Positions 291 to 61,984 of a stretch of 63,005 bases of DNA are shown in pieces (the stretch's first letter is position 1; the number at the start of each line of letters is the position of its first letter). Below the pieces are notes generated by a model. That model saw only the letters and a list, made by a program, of their open reading frames with translations. It did no database searches and was not told where the DNA came from. Where the stretch lies: NCBI GenBank assembly GCA_022563455.1, contig JADFNI010000001.1:1-63005 (forward strand). The letters are read 5' to 3'. The stretch is from Nanobdellota archaeon. Its GTDB lineage: Archaea; Nanobdellota; Nanobdellia; Pacearchaeales; GW2011-AR1. Both the position numbers and the translations under genes were made by a program.

Positions 291-377
291 ATGGTACAAA
301 AAGTAATTGATGTAATAAATTTTAGATTATGCAATGAGGAAGTCCTTGCGGATCAAAAACTTGGGAGTTTTTGCTGA
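291..377 (+). other. Leader element / mini-ORF copy A (28 codons, MVQKVIDVINFRLCNEEVLADQKLGSFC)
   Basis: The ORF runs from ATG 291 to TGA 375-377, and the stop overlaps the aIF5A ATG at 377 (cTGATGg). The 3' ~55 nt are near-identical to copies at 11900-11986 and 16883-16966. A CAAAAAC(354-360)/GTTTTTG(367-373) stem holds a GGGAG Shine-Dalgarno in or beside the loop. Confidence 0.55.
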
Positions 378-772
378 TGGTACAAAAAGTAATTGATTCA
401 ACTGAAATGCGTGTTGGAACTTATATAATGATAGAAGGATCTGCTTATCAAGTTAAGAAGATGGATGTTTCGAAGACTGGAAAGCATGGACATGCAAAGG
501 TTAGGTATGAGGCTGTATCAGTCATGACTGGAAAGAAAAAAGTTAGTGTTGTTCCTGGACATGATAAATTTGAAGTTCCTATGATTGATAAGAGGACTGC
601 TCAAGTTTTATCGATTTCTAACAATACTGCTAGTTTGATGGACTCCGAATCCTTTGAAAATTTAGATTTACCAATAGCTGAAGAATTCCGAGATTCTCTT
701 AATGAAGGAGATAGTGTAGAATATTGGGACCTTGAAGGTGAAAAATTAATTAAGAAAATATTACAACAATAA
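377..772 (+). CDS. eif5a: Translation initiation factor 5A (aIF5A)
   Basis: Contains the hypusine-loop motif SKTGKHGHAK. The N-terminus MVQKVIDSTEMRVGTYIMIEG is typical of aIF5A. The track ORF 371..772 was trimmed to the ATG at 377. Confidence 0.93.
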   Translation: MVQKVIDSTEMRVGTYIMIEGSAYQVKKMDVSKTGKHGHAKVRYEAVSVMTGKKKVSVVPGHDKFEVPMIDKRTAQVLSISNNTASLMDSESFENLDLPIAEEFRDSLNEGDSVEYWDLEGEKLIKKILQQ

Positions 773-936
773 TGGCTACAAAAATACTCGCGGCACAAAA
801 TAGACTTTTTAAGAATGCATTTGTTTGTAAGGTTTGCAAGCATAAGATGAGGGTTGAGCCCCTAAAGATTATTGGTGGAAAGGTTCGATGTAGGAAATGT
901 AAGGGAACTGATTTTAGACCTATTCGGAAGAAGTAG
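772..936 (+). CDS. rpl40e: 50S ribosomal protein L40e
   Basis: A 54-aa ORF below the track cut-off: MATKILAAQNRLFKNAFVCKVCKHKMRVEPLKIIGGKVRCRKCKGTDFRPIRKK. It has a CxxC...CxxC zinc ribbon and a basic C-terminus (.RP.RKK) as in archaeal L40e. Its ATG overlaps the aIF5A TAA (TAATG). Confidence 0.75.
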   Translation: MATKILAAQNRLFKNAFVCKVCKHKMRVEPLKIIGGKVRCRKCKGTDFRPIRKK

Positions 937-966
937 GTTTTTAAACTGTTTAATTTTAGTATAAAG

Positions 967-2397
967 ATGGTAGATTTTTGGGTGTATGATGTTGCTTTTA
1001 TGATATTGTTTAGCGTTGGAGTTGCATGGTTTTTGTCTACTCGGAAAAAAGATTTGTCTCGTGAAGGTTTGATGTTTTTATATAGAACTCAGGCAGGAAT
1101 TAAGTTCATTAATTATGTTGGAGATACATACAAGAAAACTCTTTCACGTCTTCGTTATGTTATTATTGGTGTAGGGCTTGTTTTGATGGCTTCGATGATT
1201 TGGATGCTTGGCCAAACCCTTTGGATTTATATTAAATTTCCAGGGATCACGGATATTATTAAAGCACCACCTATAGCACCTTTAATTCCTTATTTTCCAA
1301 AACTATTTGGAATGGAGTCTTTCTTCCCGCCATTTTATTTTACTTATTTTATTGTAGCTCTTGCTATCGTTGCTGTTGTTCATGAGGGAAGTCATGGAAT
1401 TTTTATGAGAAGATTTAAAGTTCCAATAAAATCTACAGGATTGGTGTTTTTGGGCCCAATCTTGGGAGCCTTTGTTGAAGAGGAAAAAAGGGGATTTGAA
1501 AAAAAGAAAACAGTGGAGCAGATGACCATTCTTGGAGCAGGAGTGTTTGCTAACCTTGTTTTTGCAATGATATTTTATCTACTTTATGTTGCATTCTTCT
1601 TTTCTAGTTTTGCTGCTTCTGGATATATTTTTACCAGCTATGCTTATGTTTCTACACCAATAGATTCGATTGATTCTTTTGGAAGAGATATTGGAGAAAG
1701 AGAAATTATTATAAATGGTGGAACGACTATTATGAATTTTACAGAGGTTATCGTCGGCGAAGAGACTTATTTAATGAGTACCAATAACAGAAGATTGATC
1801 TTGGAGGGGACGGATTTTACTGGACAAAACGTTTTGTTGTTCCCACAAAATCCTGCGATAAAAACTGGACTTAAGGGGATTATAGTTGAAATTGATGATC
1901 AAAAAATACGTAACCATTACAGTCTTAGTTCATTTTTGAATACTAAGAAACCCGGAGATTTGGTTACTATAATTACAGAGAATGAAAATGGAAGAAGTAA
2001 TTATGAAATTGTTTTAGCCGAACATCCTGATGATTCTAATAGGGCCTATATTGGAATTGCACATACAAATCCTCAAAGAAGAGGATTTATTGGAAAATTA
2101 ATATCTTTGTTTATGGGATTTAAGGAATCTTCAACCTACTACCAGCCAACATGGGATGGAGAACTTGTAGAATTTATATTCTATTTACTTTGGTGGGTTA
2201 TGGTGATCAATCTTCTTGTAGCTCTATTTAATATGATGCCTCTTGGAATGCTTGACGGTGGACGATTCTTTTATTTATCCGTTTTATCTGTTACAGGTTC
2301 TTCGAAGTTTGCTTCGATGGCATTTAAATTCGCTACCTATGCTATAATATTTGTATTTGCATTCTTAATGTTTATTTGGGCTGTTAGGGTGTTTTAG
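967..2397 (+). CDS. Site-2 protease family (M50) intramembrane metalloprotease with internal PDZ-like segment
   Basis: Has HEGSHG (HExxH) inside a hydrophobic segment. The second M50 motif NMMPLGMLDGG (NxxPxxxLDG) is present, along with multiple TM helices. Confidence 0.8.
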   Translation: MVDFWVYDVAFMILFSVGVAWFLSTRKKDLSREGLMFLYRTQAGIKFINYVGDTYKKTLSRLRYVIIGVGLVLMASMIWMLGQTLWIYIKFPGITDIIKAPPIAPLIPYFPKLFGMESFFPPFYFTYFIVALAIVAVVHEGSHGIFMRRFKVPIKSTGLVFLGPILGAFVEEEKRGFEKKKTVEQMTILGAGVFANLVFAMIFYLLYVAFFFSSFAASGYIFTSYAYVSTPIDSIDSFGRDIGEREIIINGGTTIMNFTEVIVGEETYLMSTNNRRLILEGTDFTGQNVLLFPQNPAIKTGLKGIIVEIDDQKIRNHYSLSSFLNTKKPGDLVTIITENENGRSNYEIVLAEHPDDSNRAYIGIAHTNPQRRGFIGKLISLFMGFKESSTYYQPTWDGELVEFIFYLLWWVMVINLLVALFNMMPLGMLDGGRFFYLSVLSVTGSSKFASMAFKFATYAIIFVFAFLMFIWAVRVF

Positions 2398-2399
2398 AA

Positions 2400-2753
2400 T
2401 TATAACATTACTACACCGTCTTTTGTAAGTGCTGTGAATCTTATTCCTACTGGAAGAGAAAGAAGAGCTGATTGAAGAGCCATATGTTCTTTTCCGTTTC
2501 CTGAGGCAATTGATAAAGCGATCTCTAAACCTTGGAACTTTCCTTCTAGTTTTTTTTCTAGATCTTTTTTTAGAGGAATTAAAGATTTGTCTGCATCAAA
2601 TTCTATGAAATCAAAGGGTATATCTTTTACTTGAAACTCTTTTGCGAAGCTTGGACCTACAAGAATGATTTTTTCCCATTCGCCCTTTTGCATTAAACCT
2701 GCTATTTGTCCCCAAGTTCCTTTTCCTGTTGAGAGTAATGCTACTAGTTCCAT
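2400..2753 (-). CDS. Hypothetical protein (117 aa)
   Basis: Clean ORF filling the gap between convergent neighbours. No family was recognised from MELVALLSTGKGTWGQIAGLMQKGEWEKIILVGPSF... Confidence 0.5.
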   Translation of the reverse strand: MELVALLSTGKGTWGQIAGLMQKGEWEKIILVGPSFAKEFQVKDIPFDFIEFDADKSLIPLKKDLEKKLEGKFQGLEIALSIASGNGKEHMALQSALLSLPVGIRFTALTKDGVVML

Positions 2754-2868
2754 GTTTTTTGATACTTGGTTTGGTATTTAAGGATTTATGTGAAGGAGTT
2801 AAATATTTGAGTTAGTTTTAATAAAAACTTATGAAAAGTATTTTTTATTGAGATATTATTACAATAAC

Positions 2869-2876
2869 TTTATAAA
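2869..2876 (+). promoter_or_regulatory. Putative TATA box (TTTATAAA) of the L1-P0-P1 operon
   Basis: Archaeal TATA consensus about 25-30 nt upstream of position ~2900, where the structured leader begins. Confidence 0.4.
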
Positions 2877-2900
2877 CTAAAAATTCTCAAGGATTATACT

Positions 2901-2946
2901 ACTGTTGGTAGGAGGTCAATGACCGAACCTAAATAATTCTAACAGT
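2901..2946 (+). promoter_or_regulatory. Structured 5' leader of the L1 operon, candidate L1 autoregulatory binding site
   Basis: A closing helix ACTGTT(2901-2906)/AACAGT(2941-2946) encloses GGUAGGAGGUC-AAU-GACCGAACC, with an inner GGTC/GACC hairpin. This resembles the GGAGG...hairpin...GA..CC asymmetric-loop architecture of the Methanococcus L1 mRNA operator that mimics the 23S L1 site. It ends 9 nt before the L1 ATG. Confidence 0.35.
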
Positions 2947-2955
2947 TAATATAAT

Positions 2956-3588
2956 ATGGAAACAAAAGTTGCACTTGCAGAACTTAGAAAAGAAAAGAAA
3001 AGAAAGTTTGTACAAACCGTAGACTTAATTGTAAATTTAAAGAATTTTGATGTTCGAAAAGAGGCTCTTAATACTTTTATTGATATTCCTCATCCTACGA
3101 ATAAAAAAGTTGGAGCTTTCTTGACCAAGAGATCTAAACTTATTGAATCGATTACTGAAGAAGATTTTGTGAAGTACAAAGATATTAAGGACATAAAGAA
3201 GCTTGCTAAGTCTTATGATTCGTTTATTGCTGCGGCTCCAATGATGGGAAAGATAGCTACTAAATTTGGACGAGTTTTTGGTCCTATGAATAAAATGCCT
3301 AGTCCTCAGGCTGGGATTATTGCTAAAGAAGACGATGCTACAATTTCTGCCATGATTGAAAAGATGAAGCATGTTGCTAGGATTAAAAATAAAGAGGCTT
3401 CGATTAAGCTCGTCTGTGGAAAAGAAGATATGTCAGACGAAGATATTACTGAAAATATTGTTTCAATGCTTAAAAGTTTGGAAGGAAAACTTCCTAGGGG
3501 AAGAGATAACATTAGAGAGGTTTTGATTAAATTTACTATGACTAAATCTCTAAAGATAATGGAGGACATGTATGGAAGCAAAAATTAA
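2956..3588 (+). CDS. rpl1: 50S ribosomal protein L1
   Basis: METKVALAELRKEKKRKFVQTVDLIVNLKNFD... is a typical L1 N-terminus. The gene sits first in the L1-P0-P1 order. Confidence 0.92.
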   Translation: METKVALAELRKEKKRKFVQTVDLIVNLKNFDVRKEALNTFIDIPHPTNKKVGAFLTKRSKLIESITEEDFVKYKDIKDIKKLAKSYDSFIAAAPMMGKIATKFGRVFGPMNKMPSPQAGIIAKEDDATISAMIEKMKHVARIKNKEASIKLVCGKEDMSDEDITENIVSMLKSLEGKLPRGRDNIREVLIKFTMTKSLKIMEDMYGSKN

Positions 3589-4459
3589 GACTCATGTGTC
3601 GGAAGCTAAGAAAGCAAAAGTTAAAGATCTTGCTGAAAAGATGAAGAAGAAAACTGTTATGGTTATTTCTATTAAAGGACTTCCTTCGGCGCAGTTTCAA
3701 GACATAAAGAAAAAGCTTAGAAATAAGGCGGACGTTATGGTTGTTAAGAAAAGCTTAGTTAATTTTGCGTTGGACCACTCTGGAATAAAAGAGTTGCAGG
3801 AGCTTGTTCCATTTATTAATGATTCAACTGCTGTGTTATTTAGCGACTCTGACGCGTTTGAGCTCTCAAGTATTTTATCTAAAGAGACTAGTCCTGCTAA
3901 AGCTAAAGCTGGGCAAATTGCACCAATGGATATTGAAGTGAAAGCTGGGCCAACGGAGCTTCTTCCAGGACCTGATATTTCTGCGCTCTCTTCTGTTGGG
4001 CTTGCTCCGAAAGTTGAGAATGGAAAAATTGCAATTATACAGGATAAGATTATTGTTAAAAAAGGAGATGTCATTAGTGAAGCACATGCAGCTGTTATGG
4101 CGAAGCTTGATATTATTCCCTTTGAAGTAGGGGTGGAGCCTGTCGCTGCTTATATGGATGGAATTGTATACAAGGATATAAAGATTGATAGCGAAGCTAC
4201 AATTGCAGAGCTTGAATCTGCATATGGATCTGCCTTATCATTTGCTGTTGAGATTGTTTATGTTAATTCTCTGACATTGGATTATATTTTGTCAAAGGCT
4301 GGGGCATTTGAAAATGTTATAACAAGGATTGTTACGGGGGAGCCTGAACCTGTGGCTGTAAAGGCGATAGAAGAGACAAAGACTGAAGCTAAAGAGGAAA
4401 CTAAAGCGGAGGAGCCAAAGGCTGAGGCAGCTGAGGGTTTGGCTTCATTATTTGGATAA
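3572..4459 (+). CDS. rplP0: 50S ribosomal stalk protein P0 (L10)
   Basis: Position after L1, with an acidic/Ala-rich C-terminus ending EEPKAEAAEGLASLFG shared with P1. Confidence 0.92.
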   Translation: MEAKIKTHVSEAKKAKVKDLAEKMKKKTVMVISIKGLPSAQFQDIKKKLRNKADVMVVKKSLVNFALDHSGIKELQELVPFINDSTAVLFSDSDAFELSSILSKETSPAKAKAGQIAPMDIEVKAGPTELLPGPDISALSSVGLAPKVENGKIAIIQDKIIVKKGDVISEAHAAVMAKLDIIPFEVGVEPVAAYMDGIVYKDIKIDSEATIAELESAYGSALSFAVEIVYVNSLTLDYILSKAGAFENVITRIVTGEPEPVAVKAIEETKTEAKEETKAEEPKAEAAEGLASLFG

Positions 4460-4515
4460 TGGAAATATCAAAAGATACTCAACTAAGTAAATATTTAGGA
4501 GAGAATAAATAAAAA

Positions 4516-4812: not shown

Positions 4813-4970
4813 TTGCTTAATTGTGATTTTTGGGTTTTAAAGTTGAACTTAAGTCTTGCTTTAAAACTTCGAAGATGGAGCCTCTTTAGAGGATTCTGTT
4901 TTTAAATAGGAGGTTTTTTTAGATCGGACTTTTTAAAAAGTAATTTAAATGTGAATTGATATTAAATATA

Positions 4971-6032: not shown

Positions 6033-6034
6033 GT

Positions 6035-6142
6035 ACGCCCACACCCTATAAAAAATTGTGTCTTCAGATTTATATAATTATTGAAGACCTAATTTTTTAG
6101 AATCAAAGGTTCGATTACGGTTGGGTGCTGACGCCCACACCC
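6035..6142. repeat. 12-nt direct repeat (ACGCCCACACCC) of the tRNA-Ser 3' end, copies at 6035-6046 and 6131-6142
   Basis: Exact 12-mer, GC-rich in an AT-rich context, with a 96-nt period. The intervening 84 nt contain a GTCTTCA/TGAAGAC hairpin. Confidence 0.7.
6060..6098 (+). terminator. Hairpin plus T6 tract downstream of the ApbE gene
   Basis: GTCTTCA(6060-6066)-15 nt-TGAAGAC(6082-6088) is followed by TTTTTT (6093-6098). Oligo-T is the archaeal termination signal. Confidence 0.35.
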
Positions 6143-6211
6143 GGAATCGAACCGGGATGCCACAAGGGCCCGGTGTTCAAGACCGGTGCACTACCATTAT
6201 GCGATGTGGGC
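6132..6211 (-). tRNA. tRNA-Ser (anticodon UGA), class II with long variable arm
   Basis: Reverse complement: GCCCACATCGCATAATGGTAGTGCACCGGTCTTGAACACCGGGCCCTTGTGGCATCCCGGTTCGATTCCGGGTGTGGGCG. It has a 7-bp acceptor stem, a CCGGT/ACCGG anticodon stem with loop CTTGAAC, and a 13-nt variable arm. The T arm is CCCGG-TTCGATT-CCGGG and the discriminator is G. No CCA is encoded. Confidence 0.85.
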
Positions 6212-6277
6212 TTTTGCCATATTGCAGTCATGAAACATTTATATGTTACTTTATGCGATGTGGGCTTTTGCCATATT
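6197..6277. repeat. 27-nt direct repeat covering the tRNA-Ser 5' leader plus its first 15 nt, copies at 6197-6223 and 6251-6277
   Basis: TTATGCGATGTGGGCTTTTGCCATATT occurs twice exactly, with a 54-nt period. The 27-nt spacer carries the likely tRNA TATA box (minus strand ACATATAAATG). Confidence 0.8.
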
Positions 6278-8036: not shown

Positions 8037-8741
8037 ATGATTATTAGAAAAATTTTTGATGGTAATATCAATGAAGAAATTCATAACGAATTTTTGAAAT
8101 TTGGTAAAGGAGATTATAAAGATAAATTTTTGATGGAGGGTAAACGACAACCTAAGAAATGGAGCGTTAAAACAGGTCCTGAATTTGTTAATTTTTTAGT
8201 TCGGCGATCTCTCGATAAAGTTGGAAGGAGTGTTCAAGTTAAGGGAATAATCGTGTCCACAATAGACCTTAGAGGGGAAATTGATTTTGATATTGTTAAG
8301 GTTGGAAACTTCCAAGGAATTAGGAAGTTACAAATTGATACGGAGGTTGAGGTTGCAAAGATATTTGAATTGATGGATAAATATCCTCGAGCTTTTTTTG
8401 CATTGTCCTTTACTGGAGATGGTTTTGTTTTGAAGGTTAAAGCAAAAGCACCTAAAAGTGGAAAACCTGGGAAGTCTAGCGAAGAAGGGCCTAAGGTGGA
8501 TTTTTGCACCCTTAAAACTGATGACTCAACTTTGATTGATGAATTATTCTGGGAAAATATTGGATTTACTGAGATAAAAATTGCTCATGATATAAATGTT
8601 ACAGATATTGTTTATCCATCCAATATGGATGACTTAAAGCCTAGTGAAATTCGAGAACAAAGCAAAAGAAAGGGAATTCTTACTAGAAGGATTATATGTG
8701 ATGGCAAGAAAACCTCTAGTAAAGTTGAATTTGTTATTTGA
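8037..8741 (+). CDS. Hypothetical protein (234 aa)
   Basis: Long clean ORF with non-repetitive composition. No family was recognised. Confidence 0.5.
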   Translation: MIIRKIFDGNINEEIHNEFLKFGKGDYKDKFLMEGKRQPKKWSVKTGPEFVNFLVRRSLDKVGRSVQVKGIIVSTIDLRGEIDFDIVKVGNFQGIRKLQIDTEVEVAKIFELMDKYPRAFFALSFTGDGFVLKVKAKAPKSGKPGKSSEEGPKVDFCTLKTDDSTLIDELFWENIGFTEIKIAHDINVTDIVYPSNMDDLKPSEIREQSKRKGILTRRIICDGKKTSSKVEFVI

Positions 8742-11899: not shown

Positions 11900-11986
11900 A
11901 TGGGTAATGAAAATATTGGAACAATAAGGATAAAATTATGCAATGACAAAGTCCTTGCGGATCAAAAACTTGGAGGTTTTTGCTAA
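11900..11986 (+). other. Leader element / mini-ORF copy B (28 codons, MGNENIGTIRIKLCNDKVLADQKLGGFC)
   Basis: The ORF runs from ATG 11900 to TAA 11984-11986, and the stop overlaps the L2 ATG at 11986 (cTAATGg). A CAAAAAC(11963-11969)/GTTTTTG(11976-11982) stem flanks the GGAGG SD. It fills the whole L23-L2 spacer. Confidence 0.55.
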
Positions 11987-16882: not shown

Positions 16883-16966
16883 ATGGGTAAAAATATTGAA
16901 ACAATAAAGATTGAATTATACAATGGCAAAGCCCTTGTGGATCAAAAATCTGGAGGTTTTTGCTAA
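16883..16966 (+). other. Leader element / mini-ORF copy C (27 codons, MGKNIETIKIELYNGKALVDQKSGGFC)
   Basis: The ORF runs from ATG 16883 to TAA 16964-16966, and the stop overlaps the L5 ATG at 16966. The CAAAAAT(16943-16949)/GTTTTTG(16956-16962) stem is kept via a G-U pair. It differs from copy B by one in-frame 3-nt indel. Confidence 0.55.
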
Positions 16967-22256: not shown

Positions 22257-23624
22257 ATGGCTCTTAGAGATTTATTAAAGAACTTGCCTGAAGTAAGAGG
22301 TCCTACTGAAAAGAAAGTTAGTTTTAATGTTAAATTAAAATGGACATTGATTATTCTTGTTGCTTATTTTGTCTTGTCTAATATTCCTCTTTTTGGCATT
22401 AGTGAAGGCTCACTTTCTCGTTTTGAATATTTGGCAATTTTACTTGGAACTTCATTTGGCTCAATTATTACGCTTGGGATTGGTCCTATTGTTATGTCGT
22501 CTATTATCTTGCAACTTTTAAAAGGTGCTCAAATTTTGAATGTTGATACCAATACTTTGGAAGGAAAACGATTTTTTCAAGGGTTGCAGAAACTTTTGGC
22601 ATTTGCATTTGTTGTTTTTGAATCGATTGTTTATGTTCTTATGAATGGGATTGCCGCACTAGAAGGGTTTGCCGGACTTGTTATTTTTCAACTTATTCTA
22701 GGAGGGATCTTGATTTTATTAATGGATGAAGTTATTCAGAAATGGGGCTTTGGTAGTGGAGTATCTCTATTCATTGCTGCAGGAATTGGATGGAGACTTT
22801 TCGCCCAGTTATTTCAGTTTATTGGACCTGAAGGAACTCTTGCCCCAATTGGGAAAGTTCTTGCATTTGTAGCCTCAGTTATAGTTGCTGATGGACGAGG
22901 GGCTATGGCCGCATTGTTTCCAATAATTGTTACGGCCCTTTTGTTTTTGGCTGTTGTTTTTGCACAGAGTTTGAAGGTAGAAATTCCACTAGCGTTTGAT
23001 CGAGTCCGAGGACATTCAGTTAAATGGCCATTGCAATTCTTTTATGCAGGAGTTATTCCAGTTATTTTAGTTTCTGCACTTACGGCCAACTTGCAGTTGT
23101 TTGCGTCTCTTATTCAAAATTGGGCTGGAGGGGCAACGTTTCTTGGAGGATTTAGCAGTGGTGGACTGGCCATATCCGGACTAGCATTTTGGATTGGTTC
23201 AACTCCAATATTGGATGCTGCAATTAACGGAACATTTAGGTTGATTTATATTCCTCAATCATTTTTTCATATAATATTTTATGTATTCTTCTCAGTTTTA
23301 TTTTCTTTCTTTTGGGTGAATACGTCAGGAATGGACGCTAGAAGTCAAGCAAATAAGATTGTTAATAGTGGTATGAGTATGCCTGGATTTAGAAAGGATG
23401 AAAGAGTTTTGGAATCTATTTTGAAGAGATATGTTGGACCTTTGACTGTCATGGGTGGTGCTGCTATTGGACTGCTCGCGTCAGTTGCAGATTTACTTGG
23501 AGCACTTGTGGGTGGAACTGCAATTCTTTTAGCGATTATGATATTGTATCAGTTATATCAAAACATTGCACAACAGCATGCAGTTGATATGAATCCTGCA
23601 CTTAAGGGATTTTTCGGTGCATAA
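22257..23624 (+). CDS. secY: Preprotein translocase subunit SecY
   Basis: A 10-TM protein at the canonical position after L15. The N-terminus has the ..LPEV..P..KVSF..KL.WT pattern. Confidence 0.95.
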   Translation: MALRDLLKNLPEVRGPTEKKVSFNVKLKWTLIILVAYFVLSNIPLFGISEGSLSRFEYLAILLGTSFGSIITLGIGPIVMSSIILQLLKGAQILNVDTNTLEGKRFFQGLQKLLAFAFVVFESIVYVLMNGIAALEGFAGLVIFQLILGGILILLMDEVIQKWGFGSGVSLFIAAGIGWRLFAQLFQFIGPEGTLAPIGKVLAFVASVIVADGRGAMAALFPIIVTALLFLAVVFAQSLKVEIPLAFDRVRGHSVKWPLQFFYAGVIPVILVSALTANLQLFASLIQNWAGGATFLGGFSSGGLAISGLAFWIGSTPILDAAINGTFRLIYIPQSFFHIIFYVFFSVLFSFFWVNTSGMDARSQANKIVNSGMSMPGFRKDERVLESILKRYVGPLTVMGGAAIGLLASVADLLGALVGGTAILLAIMILYQLYQNIAQQHAVDMNPALKGFFGA

Positions 23625-23722
23625 AATCCCATGAATAAAGTCATAAAGACTTTCTAAAGGGATTTTTCGGTGCATAAAATCCCATGAATAAAGTCATAAA
23701 GACTTTCTAAAGGGATTCTTTG
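23604..23722. repeat. 53-nt tandem repeat, ~2.2 copies, starting inside the last 7 codons of secY
   Basis: AAGGGATTTTTCGGTGCATAAAATCCCATGAATAAAGTCATAAAGACTTTCTA occurs exactly at 23604 and 23657. A diverged partial third copy starts at 23710. Each unit contains the hairpins GGGATTTT/AAAATCCC and AAAGTC/GACTTT. Confidence 0.85.
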
Positions 23723-23760
23723 GGGCGAAGTATTAAAAAGGATGTTTTGTTATTTGCTTA

Positions 23761-24209: not shown

Positions 24210-25064
24210 ATGATTGAACTATTTATAAAGGCAAAAAGGGCTGAGAGACATCCTTGGGAACTGTTTTTTATTGGTGCTTTTTGGGCCTCGGTTGCTCTTC
24301 TTCTTGTAACTTTTTTCTTTGGAAATGATTCTATTTTGAAAGAGGGTAGCGGACTTTTAGTTGTAATATTCACTGTGATTTCTTGCCTCCCTTTTATGTA
24401 TTATATTATAAAACTTGAAGAAGGAAAGGACGTCGAGATTGATGACTCTGGGAGGCTCATTAAAGAACACTCTAAGGCAATTCATGCTTTGATATGGATG
24501 TTTTTAGGATTCGTAGTCGCATTTTCTTTTTGGTATATGGTTTTACCTGAACAAGCTGCACAAAATTTCAATTTTCAAATAAAAACTTTTTGTGCAATTA
24601 ACAGTCCATCAAATTACAACTATTGTTTGGATCAGCATGGAATTCCAATAACGACTGGGGCAGTTACTGGAACCAATGCAGTGTTCGCAATTTTTGCAAA
24701 TAATATATCTGTCCTTATTTTTACTATTGTATTTTCTTTGGTTTTTGGCGCGGGTGCTATTTTCATTTTAGTTTGGAATGCGTCAGTTATTGCTGCAGCT
24801 ATTGGAATTTTTGCTAAAGGAGAACTTGTGGATCTTCCACTTGGGCTCCTTAGATATATGTTTCACGGGATACCGGAGATTGGGGCCTATTTTATAGGAG
24901 CTCTTGCTGGAGGAATAATATCTGTAGCAGTTATTAGAAAGGATCTTCGAGGAGAAGGAGCTTGGAAGATACTGCAAGATTCACTCACATTAATGATCAT
25001 CGCTATTGTTGTTTTGATGGTCGCAGCTTTGATGGAAGTTTATCTTACTCCCTTGATGTTTTAG
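24210..25064 (+). CDS. SpoIIM/DUF95-family integral membrane protein
   Basis: The IFANNISVLIF..., VWNASVIAAAIG and HGIPEIGAYFIGALAG motifs are typical of DUF95. Confidence 0.65.
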   Translation: MIELFIKAKRAERHPWELFFIGAFWASVALLLVTFFFGNDSILKEGSGLLVVIFTVISCLPFMYYIIKLEEGKDVEIDDSGRLIKEHSKAIHALIWMFLGFVVAFSFWYMVLPEQAAQNFNFQIKTFCAINSPSNYNYCLDQHGIPITTGAVTGTNAVFAIFANNISVLIFTIVFSLVFGAGAIFILVWNASVIAAAIGIFAKGELVDLPLGLLRYMFHGIPEIGAYFIGALAGGIISVAVIRKDLRGEGAWKILQDSLTLMIIAIVVLMVAALMEVYLTPLMF

Positions 25065-25158
25065 TTAGTTTCCTGATTCGATCAAAGATCTCATGTAAAA
25101 AAAATCTTGAGATTTTTTCTGATGGAAGTTTATCTTACTCCTTTGATGTTTTAGTTAG
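25030..25158. repeat. 39-nt direct repeat of the DUF95 gene 3' end (25030-25068 and 25120-25158, 1 mismatch) flanking a 51-nt insert
   Basis: TGATGGAAGTTTATCTTACTCC(C/T)TTGATGTTTTAGTTAG occurs twice with a 90-nt period. The insert carries an AAAAAATC-TTGA-GATTTTTT hairpin followed by CTGATGG. Confidence 0.85.
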
Positions 25159-25188
25159 ATTTTTAAGTGAGAAAAATTAGAATAGATT

Positions 25189-39976: not shown

Positions 39977-41308
39977 TCATAGATTATTTTTACTAATTAT
40001 ATTCATCACTTCCCTATAATAATTCTGGGGAACTGTTCCCCTTGAAGGGATAAAAAAGTTTTTCTTAAACTCTTTTTCATAGAGGTCTATCCATCTTTTA
40101 TGGGTTTTGGAATTTTCTATATTTTTTATTAGCATTTCTAATTCTTTAGAACTCCCAAAAGTGTCATTATTTTTCCAAAGACTTACAAGTGCATCATCTT
40201 TGAATCTAAAAATTGGTTTATGATGGCCTAGAGCCTCTATAGCAACAGTACTATTATGGAGAATCATGAAATCATGAGAGGATAAAATATCCTTTATTGA
40301 TACTCCATTTTTGATAAAGGATATGTTTTTTGAAGTGATTAGTTTTTCATAATTTTTAGGATCATCAAAAGGGTGTAATGAAATTTCAAGTTTAATTTTT
40401 GGATTTTTGTGAGCAAATTCATTTATTAGATTGCATATTTTTGGACTACTACTATCTGGACCTATTACCGGCAAAAATACTACACCTTTTTTTGAACGAG
40501 ATATTCTTTTTGATTTTTTTTCCATTGATGAAATTTTAGGGTTACCTGCAACCAATATTGATTTTTTATTAGTATATTCTTTTAGAACATCTGCTGTTTT
40601 TTCACCCCATATGAGATTATAATCAGATACTATATTTTCTTGAAGTATTGATGCTGCATGGAAGCGGGGATATTCTATTATAAAACCATGCTGCAAGGTA
40701 AATGTTGGAACATTATTATTTTTGCAAATTAATGTTAGAATAGCCTCTTCTGGAAAAGCCTGAGAGCAAAATGAGATATATGCTTTTGGAGTATATTCCT
40801 CGTAAATTTTTTGAAATTGTTCTATTTGTTTATATCTAAAGTATGTTCTTGCAATAAAGAAGAAATATTTATCTTCTAGTACTTCTTTCATATTTGATTT
40901 TTTAAATTTCTTCCAGATTTTGTATAATAGAAAGATATTTGGTATTTTATAAGAAACTTTGAATGGAGAGTTACTTTTTTTATATTCATATGCATCTAGC
41001 ATTGTTATGTCTTTTTTAGGAAATTTCTCTAATGCCTTCTTTACTAAATTATGATGATCCTTTCTAGCCATGATATATGAAGCTAAAATGTTTCCTTTTT
41101 TTCCTTTTATATTAAATTTATCTTTTGTAAATAAACACTTTAAGATCATTGCAATTTTTCTCCAAGGTACTTTTTCAGGACTTTTGTAATATACATATAC
41201 CTCAGGAGCCATGATCGGCCATAGGGAGATTCCTTTGTATGAAATTTTTGAATAAAATTTCTTTGATTCTTTTATGAAAAGTATTTTTTGATCCCAAGGG
41301 GTTACCAT
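39977..41308 (-). CDS. Hypothetical protein, possible GT-B-like glycosyl/capsule-polysaccharide transferase (443 aa)
   Basis: A long ORF co-directional with the NeuA-like gene. No confident motif, so the functional guess rests on context only. Confidence 0.35.
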   Translation of the reverse strand: MVTPWDQKILFIKESKKFYSKISYKGISLWPIMAPEVYVYYKSPEKVPWRKIAMILKCLFTKDKFNIKGKKGNILASYIMARKDHHNLVKKALEKFPKKDITMLDAYEYKKSNSPFKVSYKIPNIFLLYKIWKKFKKSNMKEVLEDKYFFFIARTYFRYKQIEQFQKIYEEYTPKAYISFCSQAFPEEAILTLICKNNNVPTFTLQHGFIIEYPRFHAASILQENIVSDYNLIWGEKTADVLKEYTNKKSILVAGNPKISSMEKKSKRISRSKKGVVFLPVIGPDSSSPKICNLINEFAHKNPKIKLEISLHPFDDPKNYEKLITSKNISFIKNGVSIKDILSSHDFMILHNSTVAIEALGHHKPIFRFKDDALVSLWKNNDTFGSSKELEMLIKNIENSKTHKRWIDLYEKEFKKNFFIPSRGTVPQNYYREVMNIISKNNL

Positions 41309-41383
41309 TAATTTTTTAAAAAAACTTGTTTTATATAATTATGTTTTAAGTAGATTTAAAAAAGAGATAGAATTAATTATTTT

Positions 41384-58531: not shown

Positions 58532-58532
58532 A

Positions 58533-60083
58533 TTATTCTTCTAATTGTCTTGCTATATCTGCAAACGCTGGCCTAGATACTAAAACTCCTGTTGTAATTC
58601 CGATTATTGTAGTTATTGCGAAACCCTTTAGAAGGCCTGCTGATGCTGCACCGATTCCCATGAATCCTAGAAGGCCTGTTAAAGGAATCATTGCAACTGT
58701 TGTTGTTGCGAACGCTGTCACGATTATGAAAAGCGCTTTTTTAATTCGTGCCTTTGCTGAGTCTCGTTTGTCTCGTGCCTCATCTAAGATAATTATTTGT
58801 GAATCTATACCCGTACCTATTGCAGCAATTATTCCGGCAATTGAAGGAAGGTCTAAATTCCACCCGATAAGCGATGCAACACCCAATATTATTAAAACTT
58901 CAGATAATGAAACTGTGACTAATGCTGCAGAGATTTTTAATTTTCGATATCTTACAAAAACAATTATTGAAACTGCGATAATTGCAAATATTCCTCCGAG
59001 CATTATTTGTCTTGTAAATTCCCCCCCTAATTTTGGAGAGATTTTGTCAAGCTTTACTATGTCTAATTTATATGGAAGAGATCCGGTTATGAGAATTGTT
59101 TGAAGTCTTTTCATTTCTTCATTTGCATTAGCTATTGCATCTTGTCTTGTTAAACCTGAGCCTGAGCCTGAAATTGATATTTGGGTTGCGACTACTCCTT
59201 TTAAGCTAATACCTATATTTAGAGAAGATATTAATTGGTCGTCGATAAAAAAGTCTAGTTGCTTGCTTAAATAAGAGCCATTGACTTTTAAATCTCCAGT
59301 TACATCTGCATGATGCTTCGCTGCTTCCTCACTTAAATAAATTGTAAATTGGAATGTACAAATATCTCCTGAAGATCCTCTAGATCTCTGACAGTTTGTT
59401 ATTAGTGCTTCAGTACCTGATCTTGCTACTCTTGTTATGTCTTTATCTCCCCCAATAAATACCGTTTCGTTTCCGATTTTTGCTTCAAACTTTCCTTGCT
59501 CCGAAATTAATTCTTCTAAATCTTTTGGAGTTGAGCCTGCAATTTCTACACCCATTAATCGATCTCCAGAGGAAGTTAAAACCTTAAAGAATTTTACATC
59601 AGAAAAACCATAGACATTTAATCTTTGCTCAGATACTGCTATAAGATCCTCTAATTCTTCTTCTGTTAATCTTTGATCTGCTTTGACTAAAGCACGCGAG
59701 CCTCCTTGTAAATCTAATCCGCTTTTTATTCTAGTATTGGGTATTTCTTTTACAGAGATTTGATCTGCTAAAGAACTTGAATATAGATTTATTATTTCTG
59801 GGTTGTTTGTTATTGTTATTATTACTTTTTCTGTTGTATTCTTTGGAATGTTTCTTATTTTTTCTATTTGGGATCTATAATCTTCAAGATTTGTTATTGA
59901 AACTCCATTTATTCCTGTGATGGTCATGCCTTCCCTAAGGCCATCTTCTCTAATTGTTGTGTTTCTCTCTACAGAATCTACGAGAACCCCTTCGCTTAAG
60001 AAAATTGGGGGAATCGAAAAAATTGAAATTAAGGATAAAATTACTGCTATTATTAATATCCAAATTCTGAAAGTTATTTTCAT
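58533..60083 (-). CDS. secD: Protein-export membrane protein SecD
   Basis: A large periplasmic-type loop followed by 5 C-terminal TM helices (..GIDSQIIILDE..). The start is set at the ATG (60083-60081) that forms an ATGA overlap with the SecF stop. The track ORF extends to 60101. Confidence 0.85.
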   Translation of the reverse strand: MKITFRIWILIIAVILSLISIFSIPPIFLSEGVLVDSVERNTTIREDGLREGMTITGINGVSITNLEDYRSQIEKIRNIPKNTTEKVIITITNNPEIINLYSSSLADQISVKEIPNTRIKSGLDLQGGSRALVKADQRLTEEELEDLIAVSEQRLNVYGFSDVKFFKVLTSSGDRLMGVEIAGSTPKDLEELISEQGKFEAKIGNETVFIGGDKDITRVARSGTEALITNCQRSRGSSGDICTFQFTIYLSEEAAKHHADVTGDLKVNGSYLSKQLDFFIDDQLISSLNIGISLKGVVATQISISGSGSGLTRQDAIANANEEMKRLQTILITGSLPYKLDIVKLDKISPKLGGEFTRQIMLGGIFAIIAVSIIVFVRYRKLKISAALVTVSLSEVLIILGVASLIGWNLDLPSIAGIIAAIGTGIDSQIIILDEARDKRDSAKARIKKALFIIVTAFATTTVAMIPLTGLLGFMGIGAASAGLLKGFAITTIIGITTGVLVSRPAFADIARQLEE

Positions 60084-61093
60084 TGTTGTTCCATGTGCCA
60101 TTTAAGAATTGAAGCATTAGTTACCCATGTGTTGAATAGATCGATTGTAAGCCCTATTAGAAGGATTATAAAAATTTGATTTAGAACTGAGCCGAAAGAA
60201 TAGACTACAATTAATGCAGTTGTTACGGCGGTGATTGAGGTTAATGTCATCGTTGTTCCTGTTTTGAAGGCTCCAAGAAGTGCTTCATTTATACTTTCTC
60301 TTTTTCGAAGAAGTCTTGTTGTTAGAAGGATATCTGTGTCAACCGAGTAACCTATGAGCATTAAGAACGCTACGATTCCTGCAGTGGACAATTTCATGCC
60401 GATGATATTTACTACTGCCAAAGTCATAGTAATCCCTGCGAAGGCTGAAAGCATTACTGCAAAAGCTGGAACCGAATTTTTGATATAGAGATAAATTAAA
60501 TATGAAATAAATGCTATGAAAATAATTCCTGAAATTATTGGATTAATGGATAAGAAAAATTTTCCCATGAAAAAGCCAAAGAGGATATTTATGAAAATTA
60601 CTTTTGCCTTTAGCTTTTTGCCTTTAGCAAAAATTACAAACACTACTGCTGCCATCCAGAAAAACGCTAGAAGAACTGCAACTATTAGTTGTTTGTAAAA
60701 ATCATTTGATAATGAGGCGCTTGTTGTTTCTATTGAAGAATTTTCCTCACTTAATTCTTCACCTAAAATTTCTTCTAAAGACGACTTTAGAGTTTCGGTG
60801 TTTTCTTCAGGAGTCGTTATTACTAATTGTAGTTGCCTTCCTGAATTATCTGAAATTGTTTTTATTTCGAAGTCGCTAAGATTATTTAATAGAAGATCTT
60901 CAAGCTCTGTTGACGACATGCTTGTGAATATACTTATTGAAGTTCCTCCAGTTAAAGATACGTCTTTTAAGATAACGTCGCCAGTTTGGAAATAAAAAAC
61001 GGATAGGAATATGAATGAAGCTAAAAGTAAAACTATTGGAGCGATTAGCATTTTCTTGTAATTGTTGTCGTACCACTTTTCGAAATCTTTCAT
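60080..61093 (-). CDS. secF: Protein-export membrane protein SecF
   Basis: Shows the archaeal secF-secD gene order. The C-terminal TM bundle has GYSVDTDILLTTR. Confidence 0.85.
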   Translation of the reverse strand: MKDFEKWYDNNYKKMLIAPIVLLLASFIFLSVFYFQTGDVILKDVSLTGGTSISIFTSMSSTELEDLLLNNLSDFEIKTISDNSGRQLQLVITTPEENTETLKSSLEEILGEELSEENSSIETTSASLSNDFYKQLIVAVLLAFFWMAAVVFVIFAKGKKLKAKVIFINILFGFFMGKFFLSINPIISGIIFIAFISYLIYLYIKNSVPAFAVMLSAFAGITMTLAVVNIIGMKLSTAGIVAFLMLIGYSVDTDILLTTRLLRKRESINEALLGAFKTGTTMTLTSITAVTTALIVVYSFGSVLNQIFIILLIGLTIDLFNTWVTNASILKWHMEQQ

Positions 61094-61206
61094 TGTAATA
61101 AATAGATAAATATGAGATTTTAAATGTTTGGTGTTTTTTGGCTTCGTGGAAAGGTTTATGTAATGTAAATGTTTAGATAATCTAGGTATTAAAAGGAGGT
61201 TGATTG

Positions 61207-61473
61207 ATGGAAGGAAATGTTTGTAAAACTTGTGGCGGAAATTGTATGTTCTGTAAAGTTACTCTAGTCGTTGGTTCTTTAGTGATTGTCGCACTTGCTT
61301 GGACGCTATCTCTATGGTGGGATATTCTTTATAGTAAGATTGCAATAACTGTTGTTGCTTTAGTTGTATCTATGACAATGTTTTGCCCTTGTAAAAATGA
61401 GGGAGGAGCTAACGCAATGAAAGCGCCAGCCGCTGTGGTTGCAAAGCCTGCTGCTAAAGCAGCTGTTGTTTAA
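61207..61473 (+). CDS. Small Cys-rich membrane protein (88 aa), hypothetical
   Basis: A GGAGGT SD lies 7 nt before ATG 61207. The N-terminus is CKTCGGNCMFC, followed by two TM helices, FCPC and an Ala/Lys-rich tail. Confidence 0.5.
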   Translation: MEGNVCKTCGGNCMFCKVTLVVGSLVIVALAWTLSLWWDILYSKIAITVVALVVSMTMFCPCKNEGGANAMKAPAAVVAKPAAKAAVV

Positions 61474-61483
61474 ACAATATAAA

Positions 61484-61502
61484 TTTTATTTTTATTTTTT
61501 TT
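61484..61502 (+). terminator. Oligo-T tract downstream of the 88-aa ORF
   Basis: TTTTATTTTTATTTTTTTT lies 10 nt after the stop codon. Archaeal termination occurs at T-runs. Confidence 0.4.
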
Positions 61503-61511
61503 AGAATTGAT

Positions 61512-61654
61512 TTTCGGACTCGAAGGTTCGATTCCATTATTTGCTTAGATGCGCGGACTGCTCAAGATCATCTCTTTGTTTATGTTTATTTTATCAAAGA
61601 GTTAATCTTTCGGACTCGAAGGTTCGATTCCATTATTTGCTTAGATGCGCGGAC
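61512..61654. repeat. 47-nt direct repeat (61512-61558 and 61608-61654) covering the tRNA-Gly 3' end plus 38 nt of trailer
   Basis: TTTCGGACTCGAAGGTTCGATTCCATTATTTGCTTAGATGCGCGGAC occurs twice exactly with a 96-nt period. The 49-nt spacer holds the CTCTTTG(61572-61578)/CAAAGAG(61595-61601) hairpin. Confidence 0.85.
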
Positions 61655-61736
61655 GGGGACTCGAACCCCGGTCAATTGGTTTCTTCAAACTTAAAATATT
61701 TGGAAGCCAATTATTCTGCCACTAAACTATCCACGC
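61646..61736 (-). tRNA. tRNA-Gly (anticodon UCC) with a 20-nt intron after position 37 (about 61681-61700)
   Basis: Reverse complement: GCGTGGATAGTTTAGTGGCAGAATAATTGGCTTCCA[AATATTTTAAGTTTGAAGAA]ACCAATTGACCGGGGTTCGAGTCCCCGTCCGCGCA. The acceptor stem is GCGTGGA/TCCGCGC. The intron pairs with the anticodon region (CAAA/TTTG, CTT/AAG) in a BHB-like fashion. Confidence 0.8.
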
Positions 61737-61789
61737 ATTAAAGGTAATATCCTTAAGAGGGTTTTAAAGTTTATCGTTGTATATTGCAA

Positions 61790-61865
61790 CGCTCACGGCA
61801 GGATTTGAACCTGCGACTTCTTCCTTAGGAGGGAAGCACTCTAATCCAGGCTGAGTTACGCGAGC
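61790..61865 (-). tRNA. tRNA-Arg (anticodon CCU)
   Basis: Reverse complement: GCTCGCGTAACTCAGCCTGGATTAGAGTGCTTCCCTCCTAAGGAAGAAGTCGCAGGTTCAAATCCTGCCGTGAGCG. The cloverleaf is complete, with anticodon loop CTCCTAA. Confidence 0.88.
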
Positions 61866-61984
61866 ATGAGGGAAGGAGGATTCTGCTCACATTTACGTCT
61901 TGAGATTTTTATAATTGTTCAAAACCTAAACGATCGCCCCCGTAACGGGTGTTCTCATTCTTTCTCATGAGGGAAGGAGGATTC
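61865..61984. repeat. 19-nt direct repeat (61865-61883 and 61966-61984) of the tRNA-Leu 3' end, the distal copy abutting the tRNA-Arg 5' end
   Basis: CATGAGGGAAGGAGGATTC occurs twice exactly with a 101-nt period. Confidence 0.8.

Follow-up and report, generated by a model that had tools for sequence, protein, structure and literature searches.

In the genome of a Nanobdellota archaeon, the ends of several genes are present twice in close succession with a short segment between the two copies, and the question arises how such structures come about. The stretch analyzed here, referred to as the window, comprises 63,005 nt (contig JADFNI010000001.1 of GenBank assembly GCA_022563455.1). It has a G + C content of 33%, is 92.7% coding and contains archaeal translation genes, namely aIF5A, a ribosomal-protein/SecY cluster, SecD/F, four tRNAs and one 5S rRNA. 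The repeats in question have the layout A-B-A, in which A is the duplicated gene end (A1 and A2 denoting its first and second copy) and B the insert. The pattern is real, is found again in related species at the same termini and has a structure that is conserved in families. We regard the A-B-A structures as probable insertion scars of small (27-155 nt) non-coding hairpin cassettes that were copied into gene boundaries in a DPANN (Pacearchaeota/Woesearchaeota-like) lineage. The elements are best read as miniature insertion elements that are non-autonomous and duplicate their target, and the pattern is not accounted for by any mobile element described so far.

All seven A-B-A repeats of the original prediction, which had been made from the letters of the window, were found where it had placed them (Table 1), and its description of an intact functional copy with a partial copy of the terminus 54-101 nt away is accurate. 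Exact non-overlapping repeats of at least 16 nt within 200 nt were observed six times, compared with 0.03-0.05 expected from Markov-1/3/5 shuffles. For 12-13-mers the excess is small (8 observed, about 3-4 expected). The 12-mer at the 3′ end of tRNA-Ser is weak as a generic repeat, but it is a GC-rich word in a 33% GC window and lies exactly on the tRNA 3′ end; a hand estimate from the base composition gives about 2e-7 for its recurrence within 200 nt. A gene terminus is overlapped by all seven repeats, for which random placement gives 6.5-19% each and about 4e-7 jointly, so that a strong enrichment at gene termini could be confirmed at the scale of the window. The surroundings of SpoIIM in 79 species, about 600 kb in total, contain one repeat of at least 16 nt within 250 nt per about 30 kb, compared with one per 10 kb in the window, and many of those in the relatives are likewise located at gene ends. 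The glycosylation cluster at 25200-58100 (about 33 kb with glycosyltransferases, sugar-nucleotide epimerases/dehydratases, aminotransferases, methyltransferases and a flippase-like protein) has about 30 gene boundaries and no A-B-A structure, all seven repeats being located in the translation and tRNA parts of the window. A near-repeat at 8046-8062 / 8120-8136 (17 nt, 16/17 or 94% identical, 74 nt apart) is not at a terminus; it lies inside an open reading frame (ORF; 8037-8741) without Pfam match and was set aside as probably due to chance.

For comparison, relatives' loci, metagenome stretches and contigs of other assemblies were used, which carry L numbers in the following. The closest genomes in the species collection are metagenome-assembled genomes (MAGs) labelled Pacearchaeota, Woesearchaeota or Nanoarchaeota, with at most 83% amino acid identity on the DUF95/SpoIIM protein. 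Assemblies of the same species were fetched by exact-protein look-up and comprise two ENA assemblies and the Logan contigs of SRR12886461 (99.4-100% identity). The structures at aIF5A, at both ends of tRNA-Ser, at tRNA-Leu/Arg and at DUF95 are base-for-base the same in these independent assemblies, which thus reproduce four loci and answer the suspicion of an artefact there. For secY and tRNA-Gly, the repeat is interrupted by 100-N gaps in the ENA scaffold; of the Logan contigs, the one at secY stops within the first unit and those at tRNA-Gly stop 30 nt into each A copy. Contig ends exactly 30 nt into the copies are explained by the behaviour of a k = 31 graph at a true repeat, so that the A1-to-B and B-to-A2 junctions at tRNA-Gly are real; the copy number at secY and tRNA-Gly is provisional and taken from the window assembly.

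A comparison of relatives revealed empty sites for every locus, and therefore B together with one A copy is inserted DNA. The relic is always the A copy that adjoins the old flank, and the insert and the duplicate lie within the last or first 10-45 nt of the gene. The polarity can be read from the native promoter, which precedes A1 at aIF5A and the relic at tRNA-Ser, and from the native spacer of the relatives, which follows A2. The sequence after A2 is thus native spacer; it does not continue as B, as had been stated in the claim that the repeats are no plain tandem duplications. Filled sites from independent sources agree with each other (L029 = L108 and L039 = L090, from unrelated MAGs and metagenomes of the Joint Genome Institute, JGI).

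At aIF5A, relatives with a 78-81% identical protein have kept the neighbours (FtsZ and FKBP before, the M50 protease after aIF5A), and B is absent in L122-L124. In L123 and L124, a TATA-like box about 24 nt before the aIF5A ATG is all that is found, and the same promoter stands directly before A1 in the window. A total of 120 aIF5A homologues begin with MV[SAQ]KVI[DE]ATEMRVG, and A is therefore native gene sequence. An origin of A from the cassette, whose 5′ end it resembles (16/21 nt in L103), was rejected, since MV.KVI[DE] is native in 120 relatives and the promoter stands directly before the gene in empty sites. The B segment ends in GCTG, so that the stop codon TGA of an upstream open reading frame (uORF) overlaps the ATG of aIF5A. 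It scores 78.3 bits with the covariance model R1 of this start-codon cassette and is 92% identical over 50 nt to a copy at 11935-11984.

The core of the aIF5A insert, TTATGCAATGnnnAAGnCCTTGCGGATCA, has two further copies in the window, both in the ribosomal-protein operon, where none is expected by chance. These two copies, the decayed gene end at secY and a second, partial insert at tRNA-Gly are missing from the otherwise correct list of the original prediction. With R1, the three intact window copies score 78-88 bits. The uORF start of the uL2 cassette shares 8 nt with the uL2 start, and the uL5 cassette opens, by inspection, with 10 nt identical to the uL2 gene start. The uL23/uL2 junction is empty in L085, where the genes overlap as TAATG, and filled in the window, L092 and L110 (clean insertion). 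Scanning metagenomes with the core pattern yielded 37 cassette copies in 32 stretches, which brings the number of copies to 42. Every copy lies immediately upstream of a gene start, is co-oriented with the gene and ends in TTTTTGCT(A/G) directly before the ATG. The genes that follow, named by reading their N-termini, include uL2, eS4, uL18, uS9, an NrdR-like protein, a GTPase and a HIT protein.

The cassette (about 60-85 nt) reads as an ORF of 21-28 codons, typically MIYKILCNDKVLADQKLGGFC followed by a stop codon that overlaps the next ATG, with GGAG 8-10 nt upstream. Its conserved unit is a 59-nt core with 14 base pairs, of which four covary. In the alignment of 26 sequences behind the structure test, 98.6% of the cells of the two hairpins are paired, four pairs have compensatory changes and 0 of 500 shuffles reach the observed value; hairpin 2 has GGAG in its loop between A-run and T-run. 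The uORF varies at codon positions 1 and 2, with compensatory changes in the stem, and its third positions are invariant, which shows that the structure of the nucleic acid and not the peptide is conserved. A conserved small protein was rejected on this pattern of variation by codon position. Just ATG or ATGG is shared with the downstream gene at 23 of 28 distinct cassette loci; three independent loci share 8, 9 and 21 nt (null mean 0.4). A scan of the whole window against Rfam at the gathering threshold returned only tRNAs and the 5S rRNA, and a permissive scan of the cassette gave only sub-threshold chance matches.

Further cassettes were noticed in passing. A weak match to the model at 41269-41320 on the minus strand (13.8 bits, E ~0.14) overlaps the start of gene 39977-41308 and may be a decayed cassette or due to chance. 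Head-to-tail arrays consist of three units in L098 (2268-2481) and two in L088 (550-698), and their internal junctions (GCTATCGAGATAAAAGTAGA) leave the frame open, so that the uORF would encode a repeated peptide. The sister strain L132 (98% aIF5A identity) carries a cassette of another subtype before aIF5A (1-51), its contig beginning within the cassette.

The insert at DUF95/SpoIIM is a degenerate full-length copy of the same cassette (R1 22.8 bits, E ~1e-4, over 25068-25124), and intact cassettes are found at the same place at the SpoIIM 3′ end in the relatives L029 and L039. The right half of the aIF5A cassette of the sister strain differs from the window's DUF95 insert by one mismatch in 27 nt. 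The site is empty in five relatives (L009, L013, L022, L034 and L012), where the stop codon is followed by a spacer of 35-50 nt and the glycosyltransferase start. It is filled in the window, L029 (32/32 identical), L039, L010, L014 and L026, with a divergence between A1 and A2 from 0 to about 25%; the structures of L010 and L014 look nested. In filled sites, the sequence past A2 corresponds to the spacer of the empty relatives (L029 compared with L022, the window with L009). The A sequence varies among species, yet A1 equals A2 within a species. The junction between B and A2 always lies just before an internal ATGGAAG, and 32-42 nt are shared. In L029 and L030, SpoIIM 5′ ends are duplicated as well.

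At secY, A1 is AAGGGATTTTTCGGTGCATAA (21 nt, with stop codon) and B, of 32 nt, contains a small hairpin. The original gene end, present in the decayed form AAGGGATTCTTTGGGGCGAAG, is located at 23710-23730 before the native spacer and has lost its stop codon. The site is empty in L015 and L020, filled in L027 with a 17-nt repeat and decayed in L018, and the comparison of L027 with L015 shows native spacer after A2. The inserts of L027 and L018 have the general layout hairpin, (A/C)TCAAAAA, hairpin and T-run, as in the cassette. The secY locus is an old event of the same kind with a recent slippage duplication between two copies of AAGGGATT.

The inserts at the 3′ ends of tRNA-Ser, tRNA-Gly and tRNA-Leu share another layout. 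These double-hairpin elements (82-86 nt; Ser 84, Gly 85, Leu 82 nt) consist of about 13 unpaired nt, a short hairpin, a long hairpin with an AT loop of 15-16 nt and a short right arm. The left arm of the Ser element matches the Gly element at 16/19 positions by inspection, with GKAATCGAACCTTYGAKTC in common, and hairpin 2 of the Ser element matches the Leu element at 28/33 positions with a compensatory C/G swap; the Gly and Leu elements both end in TGAGCA. A fold z-score of -3.0 to -4.8 was obtained for the three tRNA-3′ segments and of -2.8 for the secY B, which bears out the hairpins claimed for the B segments. The spacing of 96 nt at both the Ser and the Gly 3′ end, correctly noted before, is explained by a repeat of 10-12 nt plus an element of 84-86 nt. 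At tRNA-Gly a repeat exists as claimed; of its 47 nt only about 10-11 nt are a true gene-end repeat, and the insert has about 85 nt. The motif GGTTCGATT after tRNA-Ser and tRNA-Gly was considered as an inverted tRNA half or split tRNA and rejected, since the flanking stems are unpaired and no tRNA model matches; it is hairpin 1 of the double-hairpin element. A permissive Rfam scan of the Gly/Leu region gave only sub-threshold chance matches.

The orthologue of tRNA-Ser in L106 has a plain promoter and a plain 3′ flank, both ends thus being empty. At the 5′ end, which is present in the ENA and Logan assemblies, the functional A occupies 6197-6223 and the relic A (6251-6277) stands next to the native promoter; with the 27-nt B between them (6224-6250), a new TATA-like box, ACATATAAATG, has come to lie upstream of the tRNA at a distance of about 26 nt. 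At the 3′ end of tRNA-Gly, a homologous insert with a 10-nt A is found in L126 and none in L129. Gene order and strand of the tRNA cluster in L129 and L130 are as in the window, with Leu and Arg 11 nt apart and a plain Gly flank (empty). The window has 101 extra bases between Leu and Arg, which correspond to B (82) plus A (19), and the Logan contig L117 has an identical Leu/Arg insert. In L125 and L126, homologous inserts at the 3′ end of tRNA-Leu have the left end GGAGAACACCCGT..ACGGGGGCGA, the right end TTTGAGTA and an A of 18 nt (18/18 identical). Across lineages, both ends of the tRNA-Leu inserts are conserved, and their lengths are 82, 90 and 155 nt with differing interiors.

Some peculiarities of the tRNA genes themselves were observed. 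The tRNA-Gly(UCC) of the window has 94 nt with an intron of about 21 nt after the anticodon; its orthologue in L129 has 73 nt and no intron, and the orthologues in L125 and L126 contain other introns and were miscalled by ARAGORN. The Gly-Leu-Arg cluster is inverted in L125 and L126 relative to SecF and NUDIX, compared with the window and L129, and tRNA-Gly, which in the latter two lies downstream of Arg, is found upstream of Leu instead; both genomes carry double-hairpin inserts. In L083 (506-800, corresponding to L109 4150-4570), tRNA-Ser(UGA) and tRNA-Ser(CGA) stand in tandem before a third tRNA-Ser-like unit, which is without the 5′ acceptor strand, has an insertion of about 25 nt after the T-loop and is followed by a 12-nt minisatellite (ATGACGCAGTAA).

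Judged by their sequences, the B segments form at least two families, the dispersed start-codon cassette and the double-hairpin element of about 82-86 nt at tRNA 3′ ends. When each B was compared by BLAST with the window and with related loci (about 850 kb), non-trivial matches were obtained only between the aIF5A B and the uL2 copy and between the Ser and Leu B segments. Within the two families, the relatedness of the B segments goes beyond composition. The 13-mer TCTTGAGATTTTT reported for the DUF95 insert and the Leu/Arg spacer is present in both places, but is not significant alone (E ~0.3-0.6). The duplication length is not fixed within a family. It amounts to 3-4 nt at 23 of 28 cassette loci, to 8, 9 and 21 nt elsewhere and to 32-42 nt at SpoIIM, and to 10, 12 and 18-19 nt in the tRNA-3′ family. 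The match of the sister-strain cassette, the start of the uL5 cassette, the cassette arrays and the clean insertion at uL23/uL2 are signs that mobility or exchange may be ongoing.

Table 1. Repeats, inserts and gene copies at the duplicated gene ends of the window.
Feature	Position	Strand	Description
aIF5A repeat	291-311 / 377-397		21 nt, spacing 86
tRNA-Ser 3′ repeat	6035-6046 / 6131-6142		12 nt, spacing 96
tRNA-Ser 5′ repeat	6197-6223 / 6251-6277		27 nt, spacing 54
secY repeat	23601-23717		53-nt unit, 2.2 copies
DUF95/SpoIIM repeat	25030-25071 / 25120-25161		42 nt, 95% identity, spacing 90
tRNA-Gly repeat	61512-61558 / 61608-61654		47 nt, spacing 96
tRNA-Leu 3′ repeat	61865-61883 / 61966-61984		19 nt, spacing 101
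A1 at aIF5A	291..311	+	copy of the first 7 aIF5A codons; directly after the native TATA/promoter; begins 28-codon uORF 291-377
B at aIF5A	312..376	+	start-codon cassette, 65 nt: hairpin 1, GGATC, hairpin 2 with GGAG-like loop and T-run
A2 at aIF5A	377..397	+	functional gene start (coding sequence, CDS, 377-772)
Relic of tRNA-Ser 3′ end	6035..6046	-	GGGTGTGGGCGT; 2 nt from converging ApbE stop codon, against native flank
B at tRNA-Ser 3′ end	6047..6130	-	84-nt double-hairpin element: motif GTAATCGAACCTTTGATTC and long AT-loop hairpin with flanking A/T runs; fold z -3.15
Functional tRNA-Ser(UGA)	6132-6211	-	6131..6211 with own 3′-end A copy (6131-6142)
tRNA-Ser 5′ A-B-A	6197..6277	-	27-nt A = 12-nt leader + first 15 nt of tRNA
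Extra intact start-codon cassette	11900..11985	+	between uL23 and uL2; 28-codon uORF, stop overlaps uL2 ATG; 87.7 bits
Extra intact start-codon cassette	16883..16965	+	between eS4 and uL5; 27-codon uORF, stop overlaps uL5 start codon; 82.3 bits
secY 3′ end	23601..23730	+	old A-B-A with recent exact 53-nt tandem duplication of A1 + B (23601-23653, 23654-23706)
A1 at DUF95/SpoIIM	25030..25071	+	last 11 codons, stop and 7 nt; functional gene end (CDS 24210-25064)
B at DUF95/SpoIIM	25072..25119	+	degenerate start-codon cassette; hairpin 2 and right end TTTTTTCTG intact, hairpin 1 eroded
A2 at DUF95/SpoIIM	25120..25161	+	relic of original gene end, 2 mismatches to A1; then native spacer to GT4 gene
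Distal repeat at tRNA-Gly	61512..61558	-	relic of tRNA 3′ end (about 10-11 nt) and first 36 nt of a second, partial double-hairpin element
Complete tRNA-Gly element	61559..61643	-	about 85 nt: GGAATCGAACCTTCGAGTCC hairpin, long AT-loop hairpin, right end TTGAGCA; fold z -4.82
Functional tRNA-Gly(UCC)	61644..61737	-	intron-containing
Relic of tRNA-Leu 3′ end	61865..61883	-	T-loop G57 to 2 nt past the 3′ end; adjoins tRNA-Arg, whose first base it includes
B between tRNA-Leu and tRNA-Arg	61884..61965	-	double-hairpin element of 82 nt: GAGAACACCCGTTACGGGGGCGA on the left, a long hairpin whose loop is TATA-like, and TGTGAGCA as right end; fold z -3.04
Functional tRNA-Leu(CAA)	61968-62050	-	61966..62050 with own 3′-end A copy (61966-61984)

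For the origin of the scars, the following course is proposed. Each cassette was inserted into the terminal 10-45 nt of a gene or tRNA, at its end or its start, and the target between the two junctions was directly duplicated, whereby one complete gene copy was regenerated and a short relic of the terminus left beside the old flank. One junction lies at a short homology at the gene boundary (ATGG, the stop-codon context, or the tRNA 3′ end plus 1-2 nt) and the other at a variable distance. Junctions at short homologies combined with duplications of variable length favour a homology-guided copy-in over a transposase with a fixed stagger. Such a copy-in could proceed with staggered junctions, either by template switching between a donor locus (stop, cassette and ATGG) and the target or by recombination of an excised unit of A and B. 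At a normal stop/start junction this would result in a clean insertion; where ATGG is located upstream of the stop codon, as in the internal Met codon of SpoIIM, the gene end would be duplicated, as is seen. The mobilizing enzyme would act in trans and would be encoded outside the window.

The native boundaries are tight, with 2 nt between ApbE and tRNA-Ser, an overlapped TAATG at uL23/uL2 and presumably about 1 nt between Leu and Arg. The genes abut or overlap, and only insertions whose duplication spans the gene end would be tolerated. Surviving inserts would carry the signal that the separated gene needs, i.e. a TATA-like box at tRNA-Ser and another before tRNA-Arg, a Shine-Dalgarno sequence with stop/start overlap in the case of aIF5A, and a hairpin with T-run between convergent or tandem genes.

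Several observations weigh against the interpretation as insertion scars of mobile cassettes. The evidence base is 63 kb of genome, and the enrichment at termini is partly a survivorship effect and by itself no proof of targeting. Two inserts, the 27-nt one at the tRNA-Ser 5′ end and the 32-nt one at secY, matched neither B family. The 30 window ORFs that were scanned have glycosylation, sugar-nucleotide and housekeeping functions, and none of them codes for a recombinase, transposase or reverse transcriptase. Terminal inverted repeats are absent from the inserts; in the tRNA-3′ inserts the predicted folds leave 12-16 nt unpaired at the left end and 2-5 nt at the right, with the hairpins internal; the cassette ends show no end-to-end complementarity on inspection. 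A long duplication is not intrinsic to cassette insertion, and a single mechanism with fixed stagger is unlikely. Finally, the tRNA-Leu relic is identical to the gene (18-19 of 18-19 nt) in two lineages whose insert interiors cannot be aligned. The neutral decay of one old scar is insufficient to explain this, and repeated insertion, conversion or selection is needed.

Of the explanations that compete with cassette insertion, an assembly artefact, in which mixed metagenome strains give spurious local duplications, is extremely improbable for the pattern as a whole; at four loci it can be excluded, and at secY and tRNA-Gly it is unlikely. The two longest repeats do coincide with scaffold gaps or contig ends in other assemblies, and one Logan contig begins exactly at the tRNA-Ser 3′ end. 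On the other hand, up to three independent assemblies, produced by different software, agree completely at four loci, both Gly repeat junctions are in the ENA scaffold, and analogous structures are found in unrelated MAGs and in JGI metagenomes of other studies. Hardly more credible is a purely local mutation, i.e. slippage or unequal crossing-over across gene boundaries with B as duplicated or diverged native spacer. The exact 53-nt tandem duplication at secY, bounded by a repeat of 8-11 nt, is of this kind, the Gly locus is formally 1.5 copies of a 96-nt unit, and tandem arrays of the cassette exist in L098 and L088. However, the empty sites of relatives hold neither B nor anything alignable to it, which contradicts local mutation at six of seven loci; the sequence past A2 is native spacer, and B has homologues at other loci and in other genomes. 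The slippage suggested by the original prediction thus accounts for the recent step at secY and for none of the other loci, and a simple tandem duplication was rejected except for this step, since B is otherwise absent from the empty sites.

Less improbable, though still unlikely, is the idea that the structures are remnants of attachment (att) sites. Viruses or plasmids encoding an integrase would have integrated at gene ends with an attP copy, the repeats would be attL and attR, and the interior would have been deleted or the arms would persist as miniature cis-mobilizable elements. The att sites of tyrosine integrases usually extend from the T-loop or acceptor stem to just past the tRNA 3′ end, and archaeal integrases cause rearrangements at tRNA genes. 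Three of the loci are tRNA 3′ ends with a repeat from the T-loop/acceptor stem to 1-2 nt past the tRNA, the same target is used in different lineages by inserts with conserved ends and interiors of 82, 90 and 155 nt, and L125 and L126 have the tRNA cluster in inverted and rearranged order. Identical segments that are not att sites are likewise recombined by the pTN3 integrase (PMC5495485). Att footprints, as had been proposed, may apply at the three tRNA-3′ loci; at aIF5A and DUF95 they do not fit, since the cassette sits elsewhere at dozens of unrelated gene starts without an att-length repeat, sharing 3-4 nt. Even the tRNA-3′ inserts of the window are uniform (three times 82-86 nt with one two-hairpin layout), whereas random deletion remnants would vary. 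Neither a larger version nor an integrase fragment was seen at the filled sites examined, and the 30 window ORFs scanned include no integrase. Exact-pattern scans of a viral contig collection gave no match for the cassette or the attR-like junction at Leu and only a chance match of the Gly motif in a coding region. Improbable, to a greater degree, is a selected functional design, in which the second gene-end copy is kept as working RNA or DNA (a start mimic for a leaderless uORF, a decoy acceptor strand or leader used when pre-tRNA is processed, or a recombination site by which tRNA cassettes are shuffled) and the hairpins are regulatory. It would explain why the tRNA-Leu relic is perfectly kept in two lineages and the insert interior is not, why the AUG of A1 at aIF5A stands where the native promoter would start a leaderless transcript with a uORF stop overlapping the real start, and why the cassette hairpins covary with a variation that avoids third codon positions. 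Against it, relics decay freely (about 25% divergence in L010, L014 and L026; no stop codon in the secY relic of the window), the structures are absent altogether in many close relatives, and no RNA family matches.

Among the three explanations put forward originally, the miniature non-autonomous element with long target duplications gives the best fit, on account of the empty sites and of one dispersed B family with 42 copies. Like MITEs (miniature transposable elements with inverted repeats) and insertion sequence (IS) elements, the inserts are short, non-coding and multi-copy, are filled or empty among relatives and have a direct target duplication, the dispersed copies with filled and empty sites being what characterizes a MITE. 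Their duplications are long and variable as in IS1634 and IS1549, for which 8-514 bp have been described (PMC2266710). They differ from MITEs and IS elements in that inserts of 27-155 nt lack terminal inverted repeats, no transposase was found among the 30 window ORFs, the duplication ranges from 3-4 to 47 nt and one junction is fixed at ATGG or the tRNA 3′ end. With att sites, including those of cis-mobilizable derivatives without integrase, they share direct repeats of which one completes the target gene, the position from the tRNA T-loop to the 3′ end, and the reuse of a gene end across lineages with rearrangements of the tRNA cluster. Unlike att elements, inserts of 50-155 nt have a two-hairpin layout and are free of genes, the same family also occurs without an att-length repeat, and no integrase is nearby.

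The palindrome-associated elements derived from IS200/IS605 (PATEs) are likewise small and non-autonomous, with subterminal hairpins, a short fixed motif on one side and a single orientation. However, PATEs insert without target duplication and need a Y1 TnpA, of which none was found in the window; moreover, the fixed motif of the start-codon cassette is the start codon of the downstream gene, with which the element is always co-oriented. The organelle hairpin elements, i.e. the double-hairpin elements of fungal mitochondrial DNA, the hairpin elements of sponge mitochondrial DNA and the GC clusters of yeast mitochondria, are tiny, have no enzyme of their own and have spread in a compact genome mainly at gene boundaries. 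They recall the archaeal inserts in architecture, but belong to another domain of life and are unrelated in sequence; to our knowledge, they are characterized neither by duplications of 10-47 nt that regenerate gene termini nor by a uORF with stop/start overlap. With leader ORFs of translational coupling (TAATG/TGATG), the cassette shares an ORF of 21-28 codons whose stop overlaps the next ATG and GGAG 8-10 nt upstream, but it is a repeat that is dispersed over many genomes, where it precedes numerous unrelated genes, with conservation of nucleotides and structure instead of the peptide. A CRISPR-like repeat-spacer array was rejected, since each locus repeats its own gene end and the "spacers" are mutually related, as was a diversity-generating retroelement, since the repeats of 10-47 nt are identical or randomly diverged and also occur at tRNAs and 5′ ends, with no reverse transcriptase among the window ORFs scanned. 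A reading of the copied tRNA ends as sites of bulge-helix-bulge splicing or of primer binding was also considered and set aside. In the literature searched, no description of these cassettes was found.

More tentatively, and with considerable doubt, the cassettes could represent a distinct archaeal class of enzyme-less double-hairpin modules of 60-90 nt, which spread by homology-guided copy-in at start codons and tRNA 3′ ends, regenerate the interrupted termini and deliver expression signals including a mobile uORF. The signals delivered by such gene-boundary cassettes would be a leaderless uORF and Shine-Dalgarno sequence with stop/start coupling, a TATA box, or a bidirectional terminator. 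They would be a route by which ultra-compact DPANN genomes acquire or exchange promoters, ribosome-binding sites and terminators, and a concrete way in which regulatory signals arise in genomes almost without intergenic DNA. If the insertion of cassettes is true, a lineage-wide and still active process places structured cassettes at essential gene ends (aIF5A, SecY, ribosomal-protein genes and tRNAs) without destroying them, and a new mode of non-autonomous DNA mobility exists, with no inverted repeats, a long target duplication of variable length and one junction tied to a start codon or tRNA end. As a new conserved element, the start-codon cassette is well defined and lends itself to searches and experimental tests. 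For genome annotation, it is relevant that cassettes and relic ends create uORFs, pseudo-termini and repeats of 47-53 nt, which break assemblies and can mislead the annotation of start codons and tRNAs in DPANN MAGs.

Two differences between assemblies were observed towards the edges of the window. In the FKBP-type gene on the minus strand, 11 mismatches to three other assemblies of the same species are clustered in 84 nt (27-110), and the next 2 kb contain only 2-6; the edge of the window seems to hold a recombination tract or a segment that varies between strains. The Logan contig L117 is identical to the window until position 62705 in the middle of the 5S rRNA gene (62648-62763) and diverges completely thereafter (from position 1082 of L117), which suggests that the gene has a second 5S context or was rearranged internally in a strain.

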